Shown here: piece after piece, positions 4,281 through 13,751 of the stretch
Numbering within the stretch: position 1 is the first letter of the stretch
Layout of the letters: every line of letters begins with the position of its first letter
Virus record (IMG/VR): IMGVR_UViG_3300029955_000017
From: an uncultured virus (IMG/VR IMGVR_UViG_3300029955_000017)
Lineage: Duplodnaviria > Heunggongvirae > Uroviricota > Caudoviricetes
Reading direction: 5' to 3' (one strand)
Length of the DNA: 20,000 nt
Notes under the pieces: generated by a model
Told to the model about the DNA's origin: nothing
Database searches by the model: none
Seen by the model: only the letters and a program-made list of their open reading frames with translations
Made by a program: the position numbers and the translations under genes

Positions 4281-4373
4281 CGTAAGTCTCCGTAATAGTT
4301 ATGCCAAAAAGTATCTGATGTTTCACGTGTTAGACGGCGCTCAGTACCGTTGTGCCCTAAATCCGTGCGATGT

Positions 4374-4388
4374 TGCTAGACTGAAGCC
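4374..4388 (+). promoter_or_regulatory. extended -10 promoter (TGcTAGACT) exactly 6 nt before GTG 4389; leaderless mRNA likely
   Basis: TG 4374-4375, TAGACT 4377-4382, spacer GAAGCC, then GTG. No SD and no TTGACA-like -35. Confidence 0.55.
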
Positions 4389-4730
4389 GTGGCCTCCGAC
4401 AAGGACAAAAGCGAAGAACGCGCGCAGCAAACAGCGCAGATGAAAATGCGCTCGGCGATCAACGATGCCTACGCCGCGCTTCAAGGAGATGCGGCCACAC
4501 AATCCTTCGTGGCATTTACTTTTGAAGAAGCCGTGGACAGCCAGATCGAACGCATTTCGGGAACCAGTACGCGCTTGCGGCCCAATGAGCTGGATCGCGT
4601 GACCGCGATTCAGAACAATTTAACCCAAGCCATTCAAGTCATTAAGCAGTCGCCCCCGTCGGCCTTCATGGCCCCCGATCCGACGCGGGACGTCAATACA
4701 CCCGTTACCCCTACAGGGAGTGGATCATGA
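4389..4730 (+). CDS. hypothetical protein (113 aa)
   Basis: Clean ORF, first of the plus-strand block. Its stop overlaps the next start (ATGA, 4727-4730). Confidence 0.7.
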   Translation: MASDKDKSEERAQQTAQMKMRSAINDAYAALQGDAATQSFVAFTFEEAVDSQIERISGTSTRLRPNELDRVTAIQNNLTQAIQVIKQSPPSAFMAPDPTRDVNTPVTPTGSGS

Positions 4731-5326
4731 GAGCAGTGACGGCAGCAGTAGGTTCTCGTGGAATTGATGCGTTGACCCTTGTGAACACACCCGCCGTGGC
4801 CGCTGGGTTGAAGAAAAGCGGTGTTGATTTTGTTGGGCAGTACCTTGGCCGGGTTACGCCGGCGAGCGTCGCTTGCCTCTTGGAAGCCGGCTTGGCCTTT
4901 ACACCGATTACTTACGCCGACATCTTCGATCCCAATGACGGGCTTGAGGTACTGAAGCTCCTCGGTGCTCCTTCAGGATGCACGGTTTGGCTCGACGTGG
5001 AATCGGTAACGACGCTGACGGTCGCTGAATTGCAACAGAAGATCAATGCCTGGGCGAGTGCCTTGGCAGGCGCGGGGTATCAACCCGGCGTGTACGTGGG
5101 CTGCTTGAGCTTGTTGACGAGCGCGGAGCTCTACGCACTCAAGGTGGTGCGCTACTGGAAGTCGCAGAGCTGCGTACGGGATCGCTTTAACAATCTGGTC
5201 GAGCCTACATGCGGTTGGTGCATGTACCAGCTTTACCCCAGCGTTAGCTGGGCAGGGGTCTGGTCGGACGTCAACTTCGTGCAGCAAGACCATAAGGGGC
5301 GCTTGCCTGTCTTGGTGCAGGCGTAG
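4727..5326 (+). CDS. DUF1906 / Rv2525c-like glycoside hydrolase (GH25-like barrel, putative peptidoglycan hydrolase)
   Basis: GID...AAGLKKSGVDFVGQYL; LGAPSGCTVWLDVE (D-x-E); WASALAGAGYQPGVYVG; W-x-MYQ; D-V-N near the C-terminus. These follow the DUF1906 pattern. Confidence 0.8.
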   Translation: MRAVTAAVGSRGIDALTLVNTPAVAAGLKKSGVDFVGQYLGRVTPASVACLLEAGLAFTPITYADIFDPNDGLEVLKLLGAPSGCTVWLDVESVTTLTVAELQQKINAWASALAGAGYQPGVYVGCLSLLTSAELYALKVVRYWKSQSCVRDRFNNLVEPTCGWCMYQLYPSVSWAGVWSDVNFVQQDHKGRLPVLVQA

Positions 5327-5332
5327 CTTTTC

Positions 5333-5361
5333 TTGACAAGGGATCGAACTTGTTTTAGCCT
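5333..5361 (+). promoter_or_regulatory. sigma70-type promoter TTGACA-N17-TAGCCT
   Basis: Perfect TTGACA at 5333-5338, a 17-nt spacer and TAGCCT at 5356-5361 (T, A and last T conserved). Confidence 0.65.
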
Positions 5362-5365
5362 TCCC

Positions 5366-5447
5366 ACTCCTTCGTTGGTTCGGGTGATTCGTCGCGTGTG
5401 TGCTCTTCGAAGACCCGCTGGTTAGCTCCGGCGGGTCTTCGTCTTTG
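5366..5447 (+). ncRNA. candidate ~80-nt small RNA
   Basis: Bounded by the promoter at 5333-5361 and the terminator at 5408-5447, with no ORF carrying a ribosome-binding site in between. The 5' end is approximate (5366-5368). Confidence 0.45.
5408..5447 (+). terminator. intrinsic terminator
   Basis: CGAAGACCCGCTGG-TTAGCT-CCGGCGGGTCTTCG is a 14-bp stem (one U-G pair on the plus strand), followed by TCTTTGT. Confidence 0.7.
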
Positions 5448-5452
5448 TGGTG

Positions 5453-5464
5453 TAGAATCACGCG
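5453..5464 (+). promoter_or_regulatory. -10 element TAGAAT exactly 6 nt before GTG 5465; leaderless mRNA likely
   Basis: TAGAAT at 5453-5458, spacer CACGCG, then GTG 5465. It lies just after the terminator; no SD. Confidence 0.55.
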
Positions 5465-6124
5465 GTGGCTCTCGACCTACAGATCATCCAACCGCAAAAC
5501 GCGATTCCCGTTAGTCGCACCACGCTGGTGACCATCGGAGGGCTGCGCGCGCTGGATGTTTTGGGTTCGGACTTTCGCAGTGTTGATACGGTGTACATCA
5601 ACGACGTGGAGAGCCCCGATGTCATCGTGGTCAGCGCAACGCGTCTCCTCGCGCAGTTGCCAAGCAGCTTGCAGAGCTTCCCCGACGTTCAAAGCGTTCA
5701 GGTACTGAGCCGCCAGCTGACCCTGTCGAAAAGCAGCGTCCTACGCTTTATCATCGGAGATACCCCCGGTACGGTGTTTGGTATTCTTCGGTTGCTTCAG
5801 CTCTTCGTGAAAGTGCTTCTGAGTGAACCCGGCAGCGACATATTCAACAAGACGTTGGGGGGTGCGCTCCTTCGTTCTGTAGGCACTACCTTTGGCAGCG
5901 AAGAGGGCGACAACATTCGAACCAATGCGCTGATCGCGGTAGACCGAACCTCGCGACAGATCATTTCAATTCAAAGCCGCAATGGTACGCTGCCCCGCGA
6001 CGAGCGCTTGCTCAGTGCAAAGCTGATGGGCGCCACGTTTTCTCGAGCAAGCACGTCCATGTTTCTCAGCATTGAAGTCATGTCCCAGACCGGTGTACCG
6101 GCACGAATGAACATGGAGCTATGA
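5465..6124 (+). CDS. baseplate wedge protein, gp25/GPW-like C-terminal domain with an N-terminal Ig/IPT-like domain
   Basis: LLQLFVKVLLSEPGSDIFNKTLGGAL matches the gp25-type 'LxTxxGxxxFxPxxG' pattern, and ERLLSA follows. The N-terminal GSDF...V-x-IND...VVSATRLLAQLP is IPT/TIG-like. It sits directly before the baseplate J-like gene. Confidence 0.7.
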   Translation: MALDLQIIQPQNAIPVSRTTLVTIGGLRALDVLGSDFRSVDTVYINDVESPDVIVVSATRLLAQLPSSLQSFPDVQSVQVLSRQLTLSKSSVLRFIIGDTPGTVFGILRLLQLFVKVLLSEPGSDIFNKTLGGALLRSVGTTFGSEEGDNIRTNALIAVDRTSRQIISIQSRNGTLPRDERLLSAKLMGATFSRASTSMFLSIEVMSQTGVPARMNMEL

Positions 6125-9100
6125 ATGGCCCTGCGCGATTATGAGGCGTTTATCCGGCAGTGTGTTGCGGCGTTCGACCCGAACCTCGACACGACTCCCG
6201 GCTCGCCGTTCGACAACAAGGTCATTCAGCCCCTCGAGCGCCGTTTAGGCCCCGATCCCTTTTCGGTGGACTTGATGACCTTTGTCATCGAGCGCTTGCG
6301 TCAAGCGTACCCGCAAATGGCCACGGGGGAAGCGGACACTCTGACGGATCTCTTGGTCAAACCCGTGACCCTGCTCTGGGATCCACTGGTCCGCGAGAAC
6401 ACGCGCGTGCGTCGCAATTTATCGTTTGCGGATCCCAGCACGCTAACTGCTGAAGAGGCCGATAGCTTGGGCGGCAACTTTTTTGTGCCGCGGCAGCTCG
6501 GCAAGTTCTCTCAGGGGACAGGGCGCGTTTACTTCGCAACCCCACAGCAGATTACGGTGACCCAAAACAATTTCGTCACGGCACTGGGAGGGCTCATTTT
6601 TGTGCCCACGTCGGTGCAGAGCATTCGCAGCGAAGAGATGCTCCTAAACATCGATACGAACGGTCTTTACTACATCGACATTTCCTTGATCGCGAGCGCC
6701 CCGGGAAGCGCGTACGACATCACTCCCAACACGCTGTCGTCCATCGCCAACATCCCGTCGGCGGTGCAGATCACCAACCTGGCGCGCTTTCAAGGAGGGG
6801 ATGACGAAGAGTCCCCCGTGGATTATGCCGGGCGGCTTCAGCAGGGGTTGGGGGAAAAGAGCTTGGTTACCCTGCGCGGCGCCGCGGCCAAGCTGCTGGA
6901 AGCCTTCCCCGCGATCAACCGGTTGAACTTGGTGGGGGCGGGGGACCCGGAGATGCAGCGCGACGTGCTCACCGGTGGCGGGCTAGGGCCCATCGTGGCT
7001 TCGGGGACCGGGGGCGTGGCCATCAGCGATGGGGGCGATGGGGCATTTACGCGACGCTTCTTCACCAACGAAGTGAACTTCGACGACGTCGTCGGGTCCG
7101 AGACCGATTTTGTGCTGACCGTCTTCGGGGCTGTGTCCGGGGTGGCCGCCGCTGTCGACATTGCAGTGCAGCGCGTCGTCGATCAAAACAGCGTCGATCT
7201 CGTAAGTCCTCTTTTGGTGCTGACGACGTCGGGCATCGCATGGATGCTGCGTCAGACGCAATTGACGCTAAGCACCATCCCCGGGGGAATTCTCTTTCCC
7301 AACACGCCCAACGGGGAACTGGTGGTCCCGAGCGGAACCATTCACATAGGGGGCGCTTTTGACTCTTACGTGCGCGGCAATGACTTTGATACAGCCACGT
7401 TGGCCCTCGCCAATGTGGCGGCAGACACCCCGTTGATTTCGGGTGTGCACGCGCTCGTTACGGACAACACGGGGGGCGGCGTAACGAACACGTCCTTGGT
7501 TACGCTGGCGGATTTGCTGCTTGGAGGGAACTACCAAGCGGGAGACAGCACGGACACCGTGCTCGCCACCGCCGAGTACGAGGGGTACGCCTTTCAGCTC
7601 GAGAACGGACCCAACACGGGAACGTATCGCATTCTTGAGTACTTTCCGGCCAGTGCCCCGGGGGGAAATCCAGCCCTTCGTGTAGCGGGTGCTTTGGCGG
7701 TCAGCACCCTTGTACCGGCGCGCTGGCGGCTTTTCAGTGACATCGACGTCAACTTGATTGAACCGAAGCAAACCCATGTGAGCGGGCAGGATTTGGTGGC
7801 GACGCAAGGCAGCGCGCTTGTTACTACCGAAGGGGACATCAGCTTTACAGATTTTGGCGTCAGTAAAGGCGATACGCTTCGAATCCTTGATGGCCCCAAT
7901 GCGGGGGATTACACCATCATCGCTAACCCCCTGGTGCCGGATTACGATTACATCCAGGTGGACCGGGCGCTTGCTTTCTCGAGTACGGATACAAGTTACA
8001 CGGTATTCACGCCGAATAGCGGAAGCCTGACGCTGCCACTGGTGCGCATTACGAGCGTTGAATTGTTGGACTCCAGCGCGCAGCCGCTTGGTAGCTTTAT
8101 TCCCTACGCAAAGCCTATCGACATTCAAAGCCGGTCCTTTCAAAATGCTGGGCAGGGCGTTAAGCACGATCTACGCAACGTTCGTGTAGGGCTCGTCAGC
8201 CTTCAGGCGGATCCCACATCGCTGAGCTTTGTCATTGGCGTGGGCGCTACCACGTTGACATTTTACTTCCCCACGTTGGCGTACCCTGCGGTTACGGTGA
8301 CCTTAACCCCGGGCGCGGTTCTTTTAACTGATCTCATCGACCAGCTCAACGAACTGCTTTTGGTAGGAACTGGGGGTATTTATGCTGAAGTCATCGTTCA
8401 GGTAAACACACGTCAGTTTGGCGTGCGCCCGGTGGGTGACGGCTTCGTAGCCCTCATCGGGGGTACTGCGCGCACCACCTTATTTGGCTACGCCGATTTG
8501 CGCACAACCGCGGATATCCGTACCGACGAAGGCGACACCGTCGACAATTGGTGGGGTACTCTAAACCCCGCCATCGACCCCATTACAGGGCTGGACGTGG
8601 TGCAGATCATCGATGGGCGCAATAGCGGGTTCTACGCGGGTCCTTTCCTTTTGCAGGCGCAGGACACGACCGACTTTCCCCAGGCCGCAGCCTCCCGTGC
8701 TCTGCTCATTGGAAGCTCCCTCGACGCGTTGAGTAATGGGGGCGTCTGCTTTGCTCCTGATGCCCAGCGCCATGTCATTCTGGGTTCGCGGTCCCTTGGC
8801 AGCGCGCGCGTTTACTTCTTGGAACCCACGACGTTCGAGGTCAACGCCAACACCGTCTTTACCTACGACGCGGGCGCGACAGGTTTCATTCAGTTCATCC
8901 CGGACCCCACGCTGAACCAACAGCAGATTCCGCCTCTACCAAACGGTGTAACGCCCACCGATGGGGTGGCTACTGCGGCGGGTACTTCGTTCAGTTCCGC
9001 GAGCCAGGACTTTCTTCTTTCGGGCATTAACATTGGGGATCAGCTCTTCATCGACAACATTCCCCTGGCTGGTACGGTTGCACTGACCAATCCCGTTGTA

Positions 9101-10254: not shown

Positions 10255-10623
10255 TCAACGGTGTACTCCGCTGACATCATCATCCAGGGGGATGGTGGGT
10301 ACGAAGTGGCCTTCGTCGACGATCAATCCACTGCGTGGGTTCATCAAGAGCTTGCACGAAAGGCAGCGCAGAAGCGCTTGCGCCGTTGCGCAGTCTGGAA
10401 GCCATGTGGTGCCGGCACCCCGTGCACCACCGATAAATTCACGGATCATGTCGCTGCGGCAGCTCGGGCACACGAATTGGTTGTAGAAGGCGGCGTCTGC
10501 CTTGGCAGCCGGCGCAATTGCATCCGTGTATCCTTGAATGGCCTTGCGCGCGACGTCCGGGTTCAGCGTTTGAACCGCGCCGCGGGCTTGCGCAAAGTCA
10601 GCCAGCGTTATGGTCTTCGACAT
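10255..10623 (-). CDS. Zn-ribbon protein (122 aa), antisense to the structural block
   Basis: From ATG 10623 ([12 protein letters not shown]...), with CPSC and CLSC pairs. It fits exactly between the baseplate J stop (10252) and the fibre start (10641). Confidence 0.7.
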
Positions 10624-10638
10624 CGAATGAGGGTAGCA
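10624..10638 (-). promoter_or_regulatory. extended -10 promoter (TGcTACCCT) exactly 6 nt before ATG 10623; leaderless mRNA likely
   Basis: The minus strand reads TGC-TACCCT-CATTCG-ATG, the same geometry as at 4374-4389 and 5453-5465. Confidence 0.5.
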
Positions 10639-10640
10639 GA

Positions 10641-13600
10641 ATGCCGAGTGCTGTAGCGCTTTTGACGTTTTCTCAAGGGTTGCGTGTAGGCAGTCCGGGT
10701 CAGGCACTGATCGTGGTCGACGGCGCTCCCGTCACCATCACCAATGCGGGGAACTCGGGCGTTCAATCCTTTTTGATCGAGCTTCTGTACGCGCCCCCAA
10801 GTAGCAGTCAGCAAATCACCCCGGGTACGCAGCCTCCGACGGTGTTGGCACAGGGTAACGGTGTACCGACGGCCAGTTTGATGCCCGACGAGGGCGTTCA
10901 CGGGTGTTACCGTCTTCGTTTGACGGTGTGGGCGGGGACGAATTACACGGGGCAATCGGACGTCGACATCCGCAACGTCGCGGTGGTGACACCGATCTTG
11001 AAGTCGGTGAAGCCCCCCTACCAAAAGTTTCCGGATCCGTTGCCTCTGGAGGCCACAGGGGTTTCCGGTGCCAAGCCTGATGAGCTGAATTTCGAAGGGC
11101 AGCCGTGGGGATGGTCCGGTTCGGATTCCTATGAACGCACGGAGTACCACCTCTTAGACTCGTTTATGGAGCGCGTGGACGGCTTGGCCAGCGAGGGCAT
11201 CGCCGGCCCCACAGGTCCCGCGGGCGCTACTGGTGCGGCGGGAGCCACGGGAATCCCGGGGCTTGCGGGAGCTACCGGTGCGACGGGAGCCCCGGGCGCT
11301 ACCGGCGCGATGGGGTCGGCCGGGCAGTCTTTGGCCGCCAATTCCATCGACTTGTTCAATCGCGTGGGTCCCACGTTGAACATGTCCGCGAGCTGGCCTC
11401 CGCAGCCTACGGGCGCATTGCTCCCCTGGGGTGCTTTCCCCCAAACGGTTACGGGGGCGCATCCGTTGACGCTTTCGGTAGATCCCACCACGAACGCGGT
11501 GGAAGGGGTTGGGCCTTTTGTTTGGTACACGCGCGTCGGGTCCCGGGACTTGGTACGCGTGGACATGGGCGCCGGGGGTATTTCAAGCAACGCTAGCGTC
11601 GTGGTGCCCTTATTTGGGGTTGCCCCCAACGTGACCATCCTTGGTCATCTACAAACGCCCGGCGCACTCTGGGTTTTTGCGTACACCACCGTTTCTTACA
11701 ACCCGGTGAAGACCCTCATCGCGCGCGTCGACTCCGCTACCACCGCGGTCACGTACGCGTACTACCCAGGAGATGTGAGTGCACCCACGGAGCCTGGGGC
11801 TATTGGACTGACCAACGCGTACGTTGCCCCGGTGTTCAATACGTACCTCGGAAAGATTTTGTTCACGTCGGGGTATGAACAAATCACCACTTTTCTCGTC
11901 TACAGCCTCGACGTTGTAACCGGCGAGGTGGACCATCTCACTCTTTCGCTAACGTCTCTCGATGGAACCCAGACGATGTACTTCACCAACATCATGGGGA
12001 TGTTGATGGTCGGCGCTTACTTGTGGCTGGTTGTCTCTGGTGATTACAGTACTTCGCCGGATATCGGTTCCAACGCGACGTACTTGGTAAAAGTCAATCC
12101 GTACACGTATCAAGCCCTCGATCTTGTCGAGCTGTACACCAGCTCTTCGGGCACGCCCAGCAAGATGCTGGCTACGGCAACCAAGATTTACATTTACCCT
12201 TACCATCCCGGAAGCGCGTCTGAGCCAGGCTACACAACGACGCTCACGCAAGTGGATATGACGACGCTTGCTGTTGAAACCGTGACGTGGTTGGGCGAAG
12301 GAAGCATCACTGCGCTGGCTTACGATGGTACCTACGTGTGGGCTGCGGTGGCGTTGTCATCGGCTCCTGAAATCGGATCACCGGCGCTTCAATTCAATCA
12401 GCTGACACTGGTAGAAACGGCCACGCCGGTTTGGGGGTCGTCGTTTAATGTGAATCAACCGGAACCGGACGGCGTAGAGGGTAACCAGTGGTATTGGGGG
12501 CCTATTGTCGCTTACGACATGGCGTACGACCCGTACACGCAAACGTTGTACGCGGTGGACTCCAACAACGACTTTTTGATTACCTGTGCTTTACCCTCGG
12601 GGGGTACCTGGCTTGGTGGAACGAAGGGCATCGTAAATTGGGGGAATGGCGCGCAAGGCCCCGTGGGAGCCACAGGCACAGACGGTGCAACTGGAGCCAA
12701 GGGGGCTACTGGTGCAACTGGTGCCACCGGTGCAACTGGAGCCACGGGGGCTACTGGTGCAACTGGTGCCACCGGTGCGACGGGTGCAGCGGGGAGCTCC
12801 GGCGCTTTCACGGCGACAACAACCGCAGGGTTCACTCAGCCGGCGGTCAATGCCTCTGTGGTCGTCGCCGTGCCGACGGCACCTTTCACGACCGGGCAGC
12901 AAGTAACGATTCCAGGGGTCGGCACGTACACCGCGACGGTGACGGACGGCTCACATCTAACACTGTTGAATTCGTACCTTACGAAAAACGCCGCGCCGGG
13001 CACCGTCGAGCCGAGCGGGCTTATCGTGACGTCAGGCGGCTTGACGTCGCGAGACGTTCGCACGCCGGTACCCCTGCATGAGTGGTACCTCACCGAATCT
13101 TCGAGCCCATTCGCTGATACGGGGTCGAGTGCTAATCCATTCTCCTTCGCTGTTCTTACGGGTACGTCGGTCTCGTTTCAGCAGGCGGGACCCTTGCAAT
13201 ACGCGGTCGATACGAGCAGCGGCCTAAACCCCCCGCATGGGGGGGCTATGACGGGCGGCAACAACGCAACCGAGGAAATCGTCTACCCGTTTACGCTGAG
13301 TGTGTGGTTCTGGAAGAACTCGAATCCTGGAACATCGGGTTTACTTGGCCGAAGCTACGGAACATCCGGTGGAATTACGAGTTGCTCGTGTGGCCTATGG
13401 GACTACAGCGGTACGCCTGGGTTTGGGTTGTACACTTCCGCGACCGTTACTCTCGTTAGTTCTTATCAGACTATCACTTTGGGTGCCTGGCACAATATTG
13501 TGGGCACCTACGACGGCGCGTACGCGCGCCTGTACTACGACGGGAACCTCGTGCAATCGACGGCGGTAACGGGGGCAATTCAGTGGACGACGACCAACAA

Positions 13601-13751
13601 CTGGTGGTTTGGCGATGAGCTTGTAACGTCGAGTTCGACGCTCAACCCAAATTCCTACCCAGGCATGGTCGCGCTCCCTCGCATTTACAACGTCGCGCTG
13701 ACCGCCGTGCAGGTTCAAACGCAGTACCAAGCCATGATGGGTCGGTTCTAG
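10641..13751 (+). CDS. collagen-repeat fibre / receptor-binding protein with a C-terminal LamG (concanavalin A-like) domain (1036 aa)
   Basis: ATG 10641 has GAGGG 7 nt upstream (the track start at 10518 overlaps the antisense gene). Two G-X-Y tracts; a central beta-rich, propeller-like region ([26 protein letters not shown]); C-terminal FTLSVW...[19 protein letters not shown]...RIYNVALT (Laminin_G_3 pattern). Confidence 0.8.
11196..11330 (+). repeat. collagen-like G-X-Y tract 1 (15 triplets)
   Basis: [45 protein letters not shown]. Confidence 0.9.
12648..12800 (+). repeat. collagen-like G-X-Y tract 2 (17 triplets) containing a 45-bp tandem duplication at 12684-12773
   Basis: [18 protein letters not shown](GAT)9GAAGSS. 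DNA units 12684-12728 and 12729-12773 are identical at 44/45 positions. Confidence 0.9.

Follow-up and report, generated by a model that had tools for sequence, protein, structure and literature searches.

What a phage gains from a promoter that runs almost at once into a terminator is the question raised by a 138-bp gap at positions 5327–5464 of the DNA studied here, a 20,000-nucleotide stretch (the window) of an uncultured virus of the Caudoviricetes (IMG/VR record IMGVR_UViG_3300029955_000017). The window is part of a 167,481-bp IMG/VR virus record (genome label G000) with a G+C content of 58.6%. The gap of this peat phage lies between a 199-aa gene and the first gene of a structural operon of tail/baseplate genes, and an earlier note, made from the letters of the sequence alone, had laid it out as a promoter, a terminator hairpin and a separate -10 element for the next gene. 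This layout is borne out by our reading, which gives, in order, TTGACA, 17 nt, TAGCCT, about 46 bases, a hairpin, an interrupted T-run, TAGAAT, 6 nt and the GTG start codon at 5465. On sequence comparison the promoter-to-terminator cassette is confirmed as a real and conserved element and is probably regulatory. Our tentative reading, to which we give a probability of roughly 0.45, is that this stand-alone unit yields a non-coding RNA of 57–89 nt, of the 3'-untranslated region (3'-UTR) type or built like the StxS RNA of Stx phages, which would act through an unstructured, pyrimidine-rich 5' part.

The conservation of the cassette was assessed in loci drawn from IMG/VR and metagenomes by scans with the 219-aa protein encoded by the first gene of the operon and with its alignments. 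Three duplicates were set aside (L005 matches the window exactly over the stretch read, and L012 and L013 likewise match L011 over the stretch shown), which left 20 distinct loci, window included, sharing 38–78% identity in the 219-aa protein. The pattern TTG[AC]C-N16/17-nAnnnT begins 120–150 nt 5' of the start codon in 12 of the 20 (the window/L004, L002 = L009, L006, L014–L018 and L020–L023, hereafter the cassette loci). Its density in this 60-nt slot is 10 per kb, whereas the remainder of the loci, both strands counted, has 0.149 per kb; the stricter TTGAC-N16/17 form gives 9.2 and 0.041 per kb, respectively. Thirteen TTGAC sites lie no more than 200 nt upstream of the gene, 11 of them with the A..T pair at a spacing of 16–17, and the two that lack it belong to cassette-free loci. 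All 12 promoter-bearing loci have a hairpin of 11–14 pairs with a T-run downstream, and the RNAs predicted from them are 57–89 nt long; the promoter is nowhere seen without its terminator, two distant loci have a terminator alone (L024, L025), and six have neither (L007, L008, L010, L011, L019, L026). Flanks, spacer and discriminator, by comparison, share only 27–33% pairwise identity and are essentially randomised. That four short elements stay in register while the DNA between them decays points to selection, despite the shared ancestry of the loci. Of 11 genomes put through a strict scan, 10 have the cassette ahead of the 219-aa gene, with at most two other candidate loci per genome; genome G010 has TTGCCC in place of the strict -35 pattern. 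The cassette thus belongs specifically to this position and is no general design for operon leaders. The discrete promoter-to-terminator unit proposed earlier, with its separate downstream -10 element, thus recurs at the same place in relatives, where promoter and terminator are kept and the 5' seed that had been expected to accompany them is not.

Within the window itself the -35 element of the promoter matches TTGACA perfectly and the spacer is 17 nt, as expected of a sigma-70-type promoter, and to this extent the description "near-consensus" given in the earlier note holds; it fails for the -10 element, where TAGCCT agrees with TATAAT at three of six positions, and a promoter scan did not list the site. 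Only A2 and T6 of the -10 are invariant across the cassette loci. The promoter scan returned five promoter-like sites against 6.7 ± 3.0 in shuffles, and a search of both strands of the 167 kb for TTGACA-N16-18-TAnnnT gave a single site, against an expectation of about one by our arithmetic. Within G000 alone the promoter match is no better than chance, and it is conservation in relatives that makes the unit more than a chance match. TTGAC-type sites are moreover 2.5- to 3-fold enriched in the intergenic DNA of these phages, some of them at leaderless distance from genes, which argues that this class of promoter is in real use.

Of the 14 copies of the motif TTTAGCC (a U-run and then AGCC) in G000, about half stand immediately behind a terminator hairpin, and the motif also comes after the cassette terminator in most of the distant relatives (L015–L023); at 5354–5360 of the window it overlaps the -10 element of the unit instead.

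These counts bear on a reading in which the cassette has no dedicated function, the hairpin being the terminator of the upstream lysis-type gene, TTGAC being kept for the TGA stop codon that it contains, and the A..T pair being fortuitous or a relic. The upstream stop does lie inside TTGAC in 10 of the 12 loci, despite upstream open frames of 68–391 codons, and such a reading would accommodate the two more distant loci that have a terminator and no promoter, the RNA contigs (below) in which upstream mRNA runs into the unit, and a promoter match within chance in G000. It does not explain why the T before and the C after the TGA, together with A and T at 16–17 nt, are kept at 11 of 11 sites whose neighbouring bases are 27–33% identical, when, as we calculate, chance would supply A..T at any of three spacings with a probability of about 0.13 per site. 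The window retains TTGACA although the DUF1906 gene ends 9 nt before it, its stop codon having moved upstream, and the intergenic enrichment of TTGAC-type sites, some at leaderless distance, indicates that the class is used for promoters. We regard the absence of a function as unlikely.

The start of the predicted RNA is set by its distance from the -10 element. The canonical +1, 7 nt past the -10, is U5368, and A5366 lies only 5 nt past it; the +1 is most likely at 5367–5370 by this spacing. The seventh base past the -10 is a purine in 8 of the 12 cassette loci. Positions 5366–5383 read ACTCCTTCGTTGGTTCGGG, with CTCCTT at 5367–5372.

About 40 nt past the predicted +1, where the earlier note had placed a 14-bp terminator, the hairpin has 14 pairs (10 of them G-C), a 6-nt loop and the tail TCTTTGTGGT, and is the strongest terminator-like site in the window, a G+C-rich hairpin with a U-run on the transcribed strand. 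The 84-nt RNA from 5366 to 5449 folds at -33.8 kcal/mol (z = -4.0; none of 200 shuffles equalled it), and three RNAs folded individually gave z between -4.0 and -4.9 each. Among the window, L002 and L006 the hairpin shows G-U wobbles and an A-U to G-C swap, the wobbles favouring the + strand. When the 12 RNAs were aligned and given a consensus fold, with start coordinates one base late, only seven terminator pairs emerged, four of them with double changes, and the 5' parts remained unaligned. These substitutions indicate that the hairpin is kept at the RNA level on the + strand. No other strong terminator of G000 has a TTGAC-type promoter within 130 nt. Other intergenic pairs of a TTGAC promoter and a terminator occur in related genomes at about 53306 (- strand) in G003, about 11101 (+ strand) in G002 and about 55632 (- strand) in G009, with no gene within 200 nt downstream, and may be further small-RNA units.

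The 5' part of the RNA holds a small hairpin with a UUCG loop (5381–5398) and the box GUGCUCUU (5400–5407), which is common to the window and its two closest relatives; several relatives have a small 5' hairpin with a C-rich loop, which the window lacks, having UUCG instead. A boxA-like reading of GUGCUCUU was dropped: the box occurs only in the three closest relatives, with CGCUCUUC in L020. The 5' parts pair with the 5' arm of the terminator less well than shuffles do (fraction folding at least as well 0.20–1.00, mean 0.71), which argues against an RNA switch and fits an accessible 5' part. An attenuator working by a leader peptide or an RNA switch was likewise rejected, as none of the 12 predicted +1 positions begins with a start codon and hence no leader open reading frame (ORF) is present, no antiterminator fold was seen, and no riboswitch or leader family of Rfam was matched. 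The Rfam search that the earlier note had suggested returned no family match: an E-value scan of 4500–6500 gave ctRNA_pGA1 as best hit, whose 22.2 bits fall short of the gathering score of 45, and a gathering-score scan of the 12 cassette loci, the region of the window included, gave nothing.

Environmental RNA places transcription on the + strand of this region. Parts of 4300–6600 are present in ten metatranscriptome runs, which come from nine studies, and four of the runs were placed on the window, where RNA-library contigs cover 5097–5398 (X1), 5124–5394 (X2) and 5099–5343 (X3). At the adapter junctions, seven of seven informative ones share one orientation, which we take to be that of + strand RNA and not of DNA, presuming standard Illumina adapter sequences and a dUTP-type library. 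Since the contigs run across the promoter, upstream mRNA enters the unit and the hairpin serves as its terminator; a weak hairpin over the stop codon of the upstream gene, which the contigs cross, is for that reason not an efficient stop. Contigs X1 and X2 leave 5399–5488 uncovered, a gap between contigs that proves nothing, and assembled contigs cannot show transcript starts, ends or a separate small RNA.

In the mechanism that we propose for the regulatory RNA, the promoter, with its perfect -35 and minimal -10, would fire into a strong intrinsic terminator about 40 nt past the start. The product would be a non-coding RNA of about 80 nt, open and rich in pyrimidines in its 5' part and closed at the 3' end by the terminator hairpin and a U-tail. 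Such a small RNA would start from a promoter of its own where the upstream gene ends and would use the terminator of that gene, a build for which the overlap of -35 element and stop codon in 10 of the 12 loci speaks, given upstream frames of such different lengths. Its 5' part would pair in trans with G-rich sites in host or phage mRNAs, probably those of the host, and the targets may differ between phages or lie in the host.

A number of observations weigh against such an RNA. The 12 loci share ancestry and are not 12 independent events, and the U-run of the window is interrupted (TCTTTGTGG) and cleaner in relatives. No 5' motif is common to the 12 RNAs, and the three closest share only GUGCUCYUU beside the hairpin, so that the conserved seed expected of a trans-acting small RNA was not found among them. 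The contigs on the unit also span the upstream gene, which describes a 3' UTR, not a separate RNA, and contig X4 (5383–5686) spans the terminator, by read-through or as carried-over DNA. No Hfq is encoded by the phage. Target scans, made on phage genomes with crude longest-ORF starts and hybridisation energy only, gave for 5366–5407 against 189 start regions of G000 a best duplex of -42.7 kcal/mol, compared with -40.3 ± 2.5 for shuffles, 20% of 60 shuffles reaching the best energy; the comparative scan, which took in 47 orthologue groups from 11 genomes, had 0.168 as its best geometric-mean rank, a value bettered by every one of 14 shuffled controls. Within the phage genomes, therefore, no target better than chance was found.

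The earlier note had suggested a different mode of action for the RNA, in which a 5' CUCCUU would mimic the ribosomal anti-Shine-Dalgarno (anti-SD) sequence, mask SD sites generally and, more speculatively, favour leaderless phage messages. The motif is present at 5367–5372, although the canonical +1 would clip its first C, and the two closest relatives carry CUCCUU or CUCCUC. As a conserved 5' end it did not survive comparison: CUCCU occurs in 3 of the 12 predicted RNAs (the window, L009 and L006), at differing positions, being 5'-terminal only in the window and lying beside the terminator in the other two. C-rich stretches such as UUCCC in four other relatives (L016, L017, L021, L022) speak for it, as do the leaderless starts common in the phage group. 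Most internal genes of the phage's own operons are, however, SD-led, so that a general SD blocker would hit the phage too, and one small RNA could hardly titrate every SD site of a cell. General occlusion of SD sites is thus unsupported, and we hold this mechanism to be highly improbable.

The gene downstream gives the cassette its context. Its -10 element was correctly seen in the earlier note as separate from the unit: TAnnnT lies 5–7 nt before the start codon in all 12 cassette loci and in the cassette-free relatives L010, L011, L025 and L026, and the cassette is on this pattern accessory to the operon. The leaderless starts that had been suspected of the phage are supported genome-wide, as 12 of the 189 crude ORF starts in G000 have TAnnnT at a distance of exactly 6 nt upstream, against about 1.6 at other offsets, and the same 6-nt peak is found in all 10 related genomes. 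A leaderless example within the window is TAGACT-N6-GTG at 4389 (4377–4391). On the crude ORF map the operon carries + strand structural genes from 5465 to about 31.2 kb in window-relative coordinates, beyond the window.

The anatomy would also fit another possibility, since a good promoter here gives a short transcript that stops immediately ahead of a + strand structural operon of roughly 26 kb. The terminator would then gate entry into the late operon as in lambda PR'-tR', the promoter being always on, a later phage protein permitting read-through and the short RNA being a by-product. Contig X4, which bridges the terminator, is what read-through would produce, and poor conservation of the transcribed sequence is expected if only the act of transcription matters. 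The protein that such a gate needs was not found, however: Q-type antiterminators (PF06530 and PF03589) had no match in six frames, and a Pfam scan of 149 of the 157 ORFs of at least 90 aa gave no antiterminator. Nor do the late genes appear to depend on the upstream promoter, the leaderless -10 of the operon itself being kept in all 12 cassette loci and in cassette-free relatives. A read-through mRNA would also leave the first gene without an SD sequence, and inside the operon there is no strong intergenic terminator that would call for processive antitermination. We consider gating improbable, although an antiterminator of an unfamiliar type may have escaped these scans.

The close approach of terminator and downstream promoter invites a reading in cis. 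The end of the T-run and the downstream -10 are 5–28 nt apart in all 12 cassette loci, the promoter is always accompanied by the terminator, and the RNA keeps to a length of 57–89 nt although its sequence varies freely. This would suit a hand-off, in which RNA polymerase stays on the DNA after termination and re-initiates at the leaderless promoter, or the opposite, early occlusion of that promoter by traffic. Such recycling has a published basis, as bacterial RNA polymerase is reported to be able to stay on DNA after intrinsic termination and re-initiate nearby (PMC6978380, PMC6978322, PMC10372574). Other leaderless promoters of these phages nevertheless do without a cassette, some leaderless genes carry a TTGAC -35 of their own, a simpler way to strengthen a promoter, and the cassette-free relatives retain the operon promoter; hand-off or interference is thus of low probability in our view. 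A specific form of the idea is a loading ramp, in which the cassette is not there for its RNA: the consensus -35 would capture polymerase, which, perhaps with sigma, would slide on past the terminator and re-initiate at the weak promoter, which has a -10 only and must place its start at the start codon. We think this decidedly unlikely; if true, it would strengthen a leaderless late operon with no leader added and would be a natural, conserved use of post-termination recycling.

Which polymerase would read the unit bears on any of these accounts. The phage encodes a fused beta-beta' RNA polymerase of 2515 aa, with Rpb2_6 (E 1.6e-56), Rpb2_3, Rpb1_2 and Rpb1_5 in a single ORF and an orthologue in 10 of the 11 compared genomes by blastp. 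Sigma-70 regions 2, 3 and 4 are matched weakly but in collinear order (13–17 bits each) by a 286-aa ORF, which also matches the sigma factor family phrog_351 (E 3.3e-5) and is possibly a divergent phage sigma factor. With a polymerase and a sigma-like ORF encoded by the phage itself, the view that the small RNA is driven by host sigma-70 is not established. These ORFs and the features of the gap are listed in Table 1.

Table 1. Coordinates of the cassette, its flanking genes and the transcription-related ORFs of the phage; positions are those of the window except where another sequence is named.
Feature	Position	Strand	Description	Matches and conservation
Upstream gene, 199 aa	4727–5326	+	Rv2525c/DUF1906-like glycoside hydrolase, weakly endolysin-like	Pfam PF08924, E 4.3e-7; phrog_291 endolysin, E 1e-4
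Weak hairpin, 9 pairs	5299–5324	+	Over the stop codon of the upstream gene; tail AGCTTTTCT	
-35 element TTGACA	5333–5338	+		TTGAC in 11 of 12 cassette loci, TTGCC in the twelfth
-10 element TAGCCT	5356–5361	+	17 nt past the -35 element	
Predicted 5' part of the RNA	5366–5407	+	Start site predicted	
Intrinsic terminator	5408–5449	+	14-bp hairpin (5408–5441) and interrupted U-run TCTTTGTG	
-10 element TAGAAT of the next operon	5453–5458	+	6 nt before the start codon, leaderless	
First gene of the structural operon, 219 aa	5465–6124	+	No family	249 homologues
RNA polymerase ORF, 2515 aa	L032:6086-13630; G000 106086–113633; window-relative 60138–67685		Outside the window	
Sigma-like ORF, 286 aa	L027:7291-8151 (G000)	+	Opposite strand called in the crude ORF map	

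The genes on either side differ in how well they can be named. Of the homologues of the 219-aa protein, 10 are listed at 72–78% identity. The protein has no match to any Pfam or PHROG family, which leaves the label "gp25-like" given to it earlier unsupported. Upstream, the 199-aa gene lies between a gene-A homologue and the unit and is missing at this place in L002 and L006. There, the gene that ends inside TTGACA (2181–2882 in L002 and 1–210 in L006) resembles, from the DNA, the C-terminal part of the 113-aa gene of the window (4389–4730), which suggests that the DUF1906/lysin-like gene is an insertion or swap at a module boundary. More distant relatives have a different upstream gene of roughly 380 codons.

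Elsewhere in the window, 10518–13751 encodes a tail-fibre-like protein of 1077 aa, which has collagen triple-helix repeats and, at its C terminus, a Laminin_G_3/concanavalin-like domain. Two further proteins of G000 may serve in counter-defence, one of 410 aa with a SocA/Panacea antitoxin-like domain (L028:12117-13346, E 9.5e-18) and a 333-aa pentapeptide-repeat protein (L028:14207-15205, E 2e-99). The 167-kb record contains no transfer RNA or transfer-messenger RNA genes by ARAGORN, blastn of 4300–6600 against a phage GenBank collection with distant settings gave no match, and a scan of GTDB genomes with a 32-protein alignment found no relative and hence no prophage or host lead.

To our knowledge, nearly all known phage small RNAs come from a small number of cultured model phages and prophages. 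The unit would add to them an uncatalogued, position-conserved small-RNA candidate of a known general kind, from a clade of 100–190-kb uncultured soil/peat phages that make use of leaderless messages and encode an RNA polymerase of their own, a beta-beta' fusion. A regulatory RNA would offer a handle on the timing or tuning of the structural genes or on action upon the host; if the cassette acts in cis, it would be a compact natural device before a leaderless operon. As a defined 115-bp element, the cassette can be tested in vitro without phage culture.

Several known systems resemble the unit in part. The lambda oop RNA (77 nt, antisense to cII) is likewise a phage RNA that runs from promoter to terminator and is of similar length, but unlike this antisense RNA the unit has both neighbours on its own strand and no gene opposite. 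Staphylococcal RsaE and actinobacterial 6C are small RNAs with C-rich or UCCC motifs that pair with SD regions; they share with the unit unpaired pyrimidine- or C-rich stretches before a terminator hairpin (UUCCC in four relatives, CUCCU in three), although no common motif, structure or family membership was found by way of Rfam. A third kind comprises small RNAs that derive from 3' UTRs and have their own promoter, DapZ among them. RNAs of this type have conserved seeds, known targets and a dependence on Hfq, whereas the unit has no family-wide seed and no target was found for it. Another of this kind is MicL, whose promoter is reported to lie inside or at the end of the upstream gene (PMC4102768). 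The two hallmarks of their build are nonetheless present in the unit, as the promoter overlaps the upstream coding end in 10 of 12 loci and the terminator of the mRNA is shared. In Stx phages, the short PR'-tR' transcript StxS (74 nt) can act in trans as a regulatory small RNA and is also part of the Q antitermination switch, late genes depending on PR' (PMC7547250). The unit departs from StxS in that no Q was found, the operon has its own -10 with a leaderless start, and there is neither sequence similarity nor an Rfam match; what StxS and the lambda 6S RNA share with it is the arrangement itself, a promoter followed by an immediate intrinsic terminator, directly 5' of the late genes of a phage.

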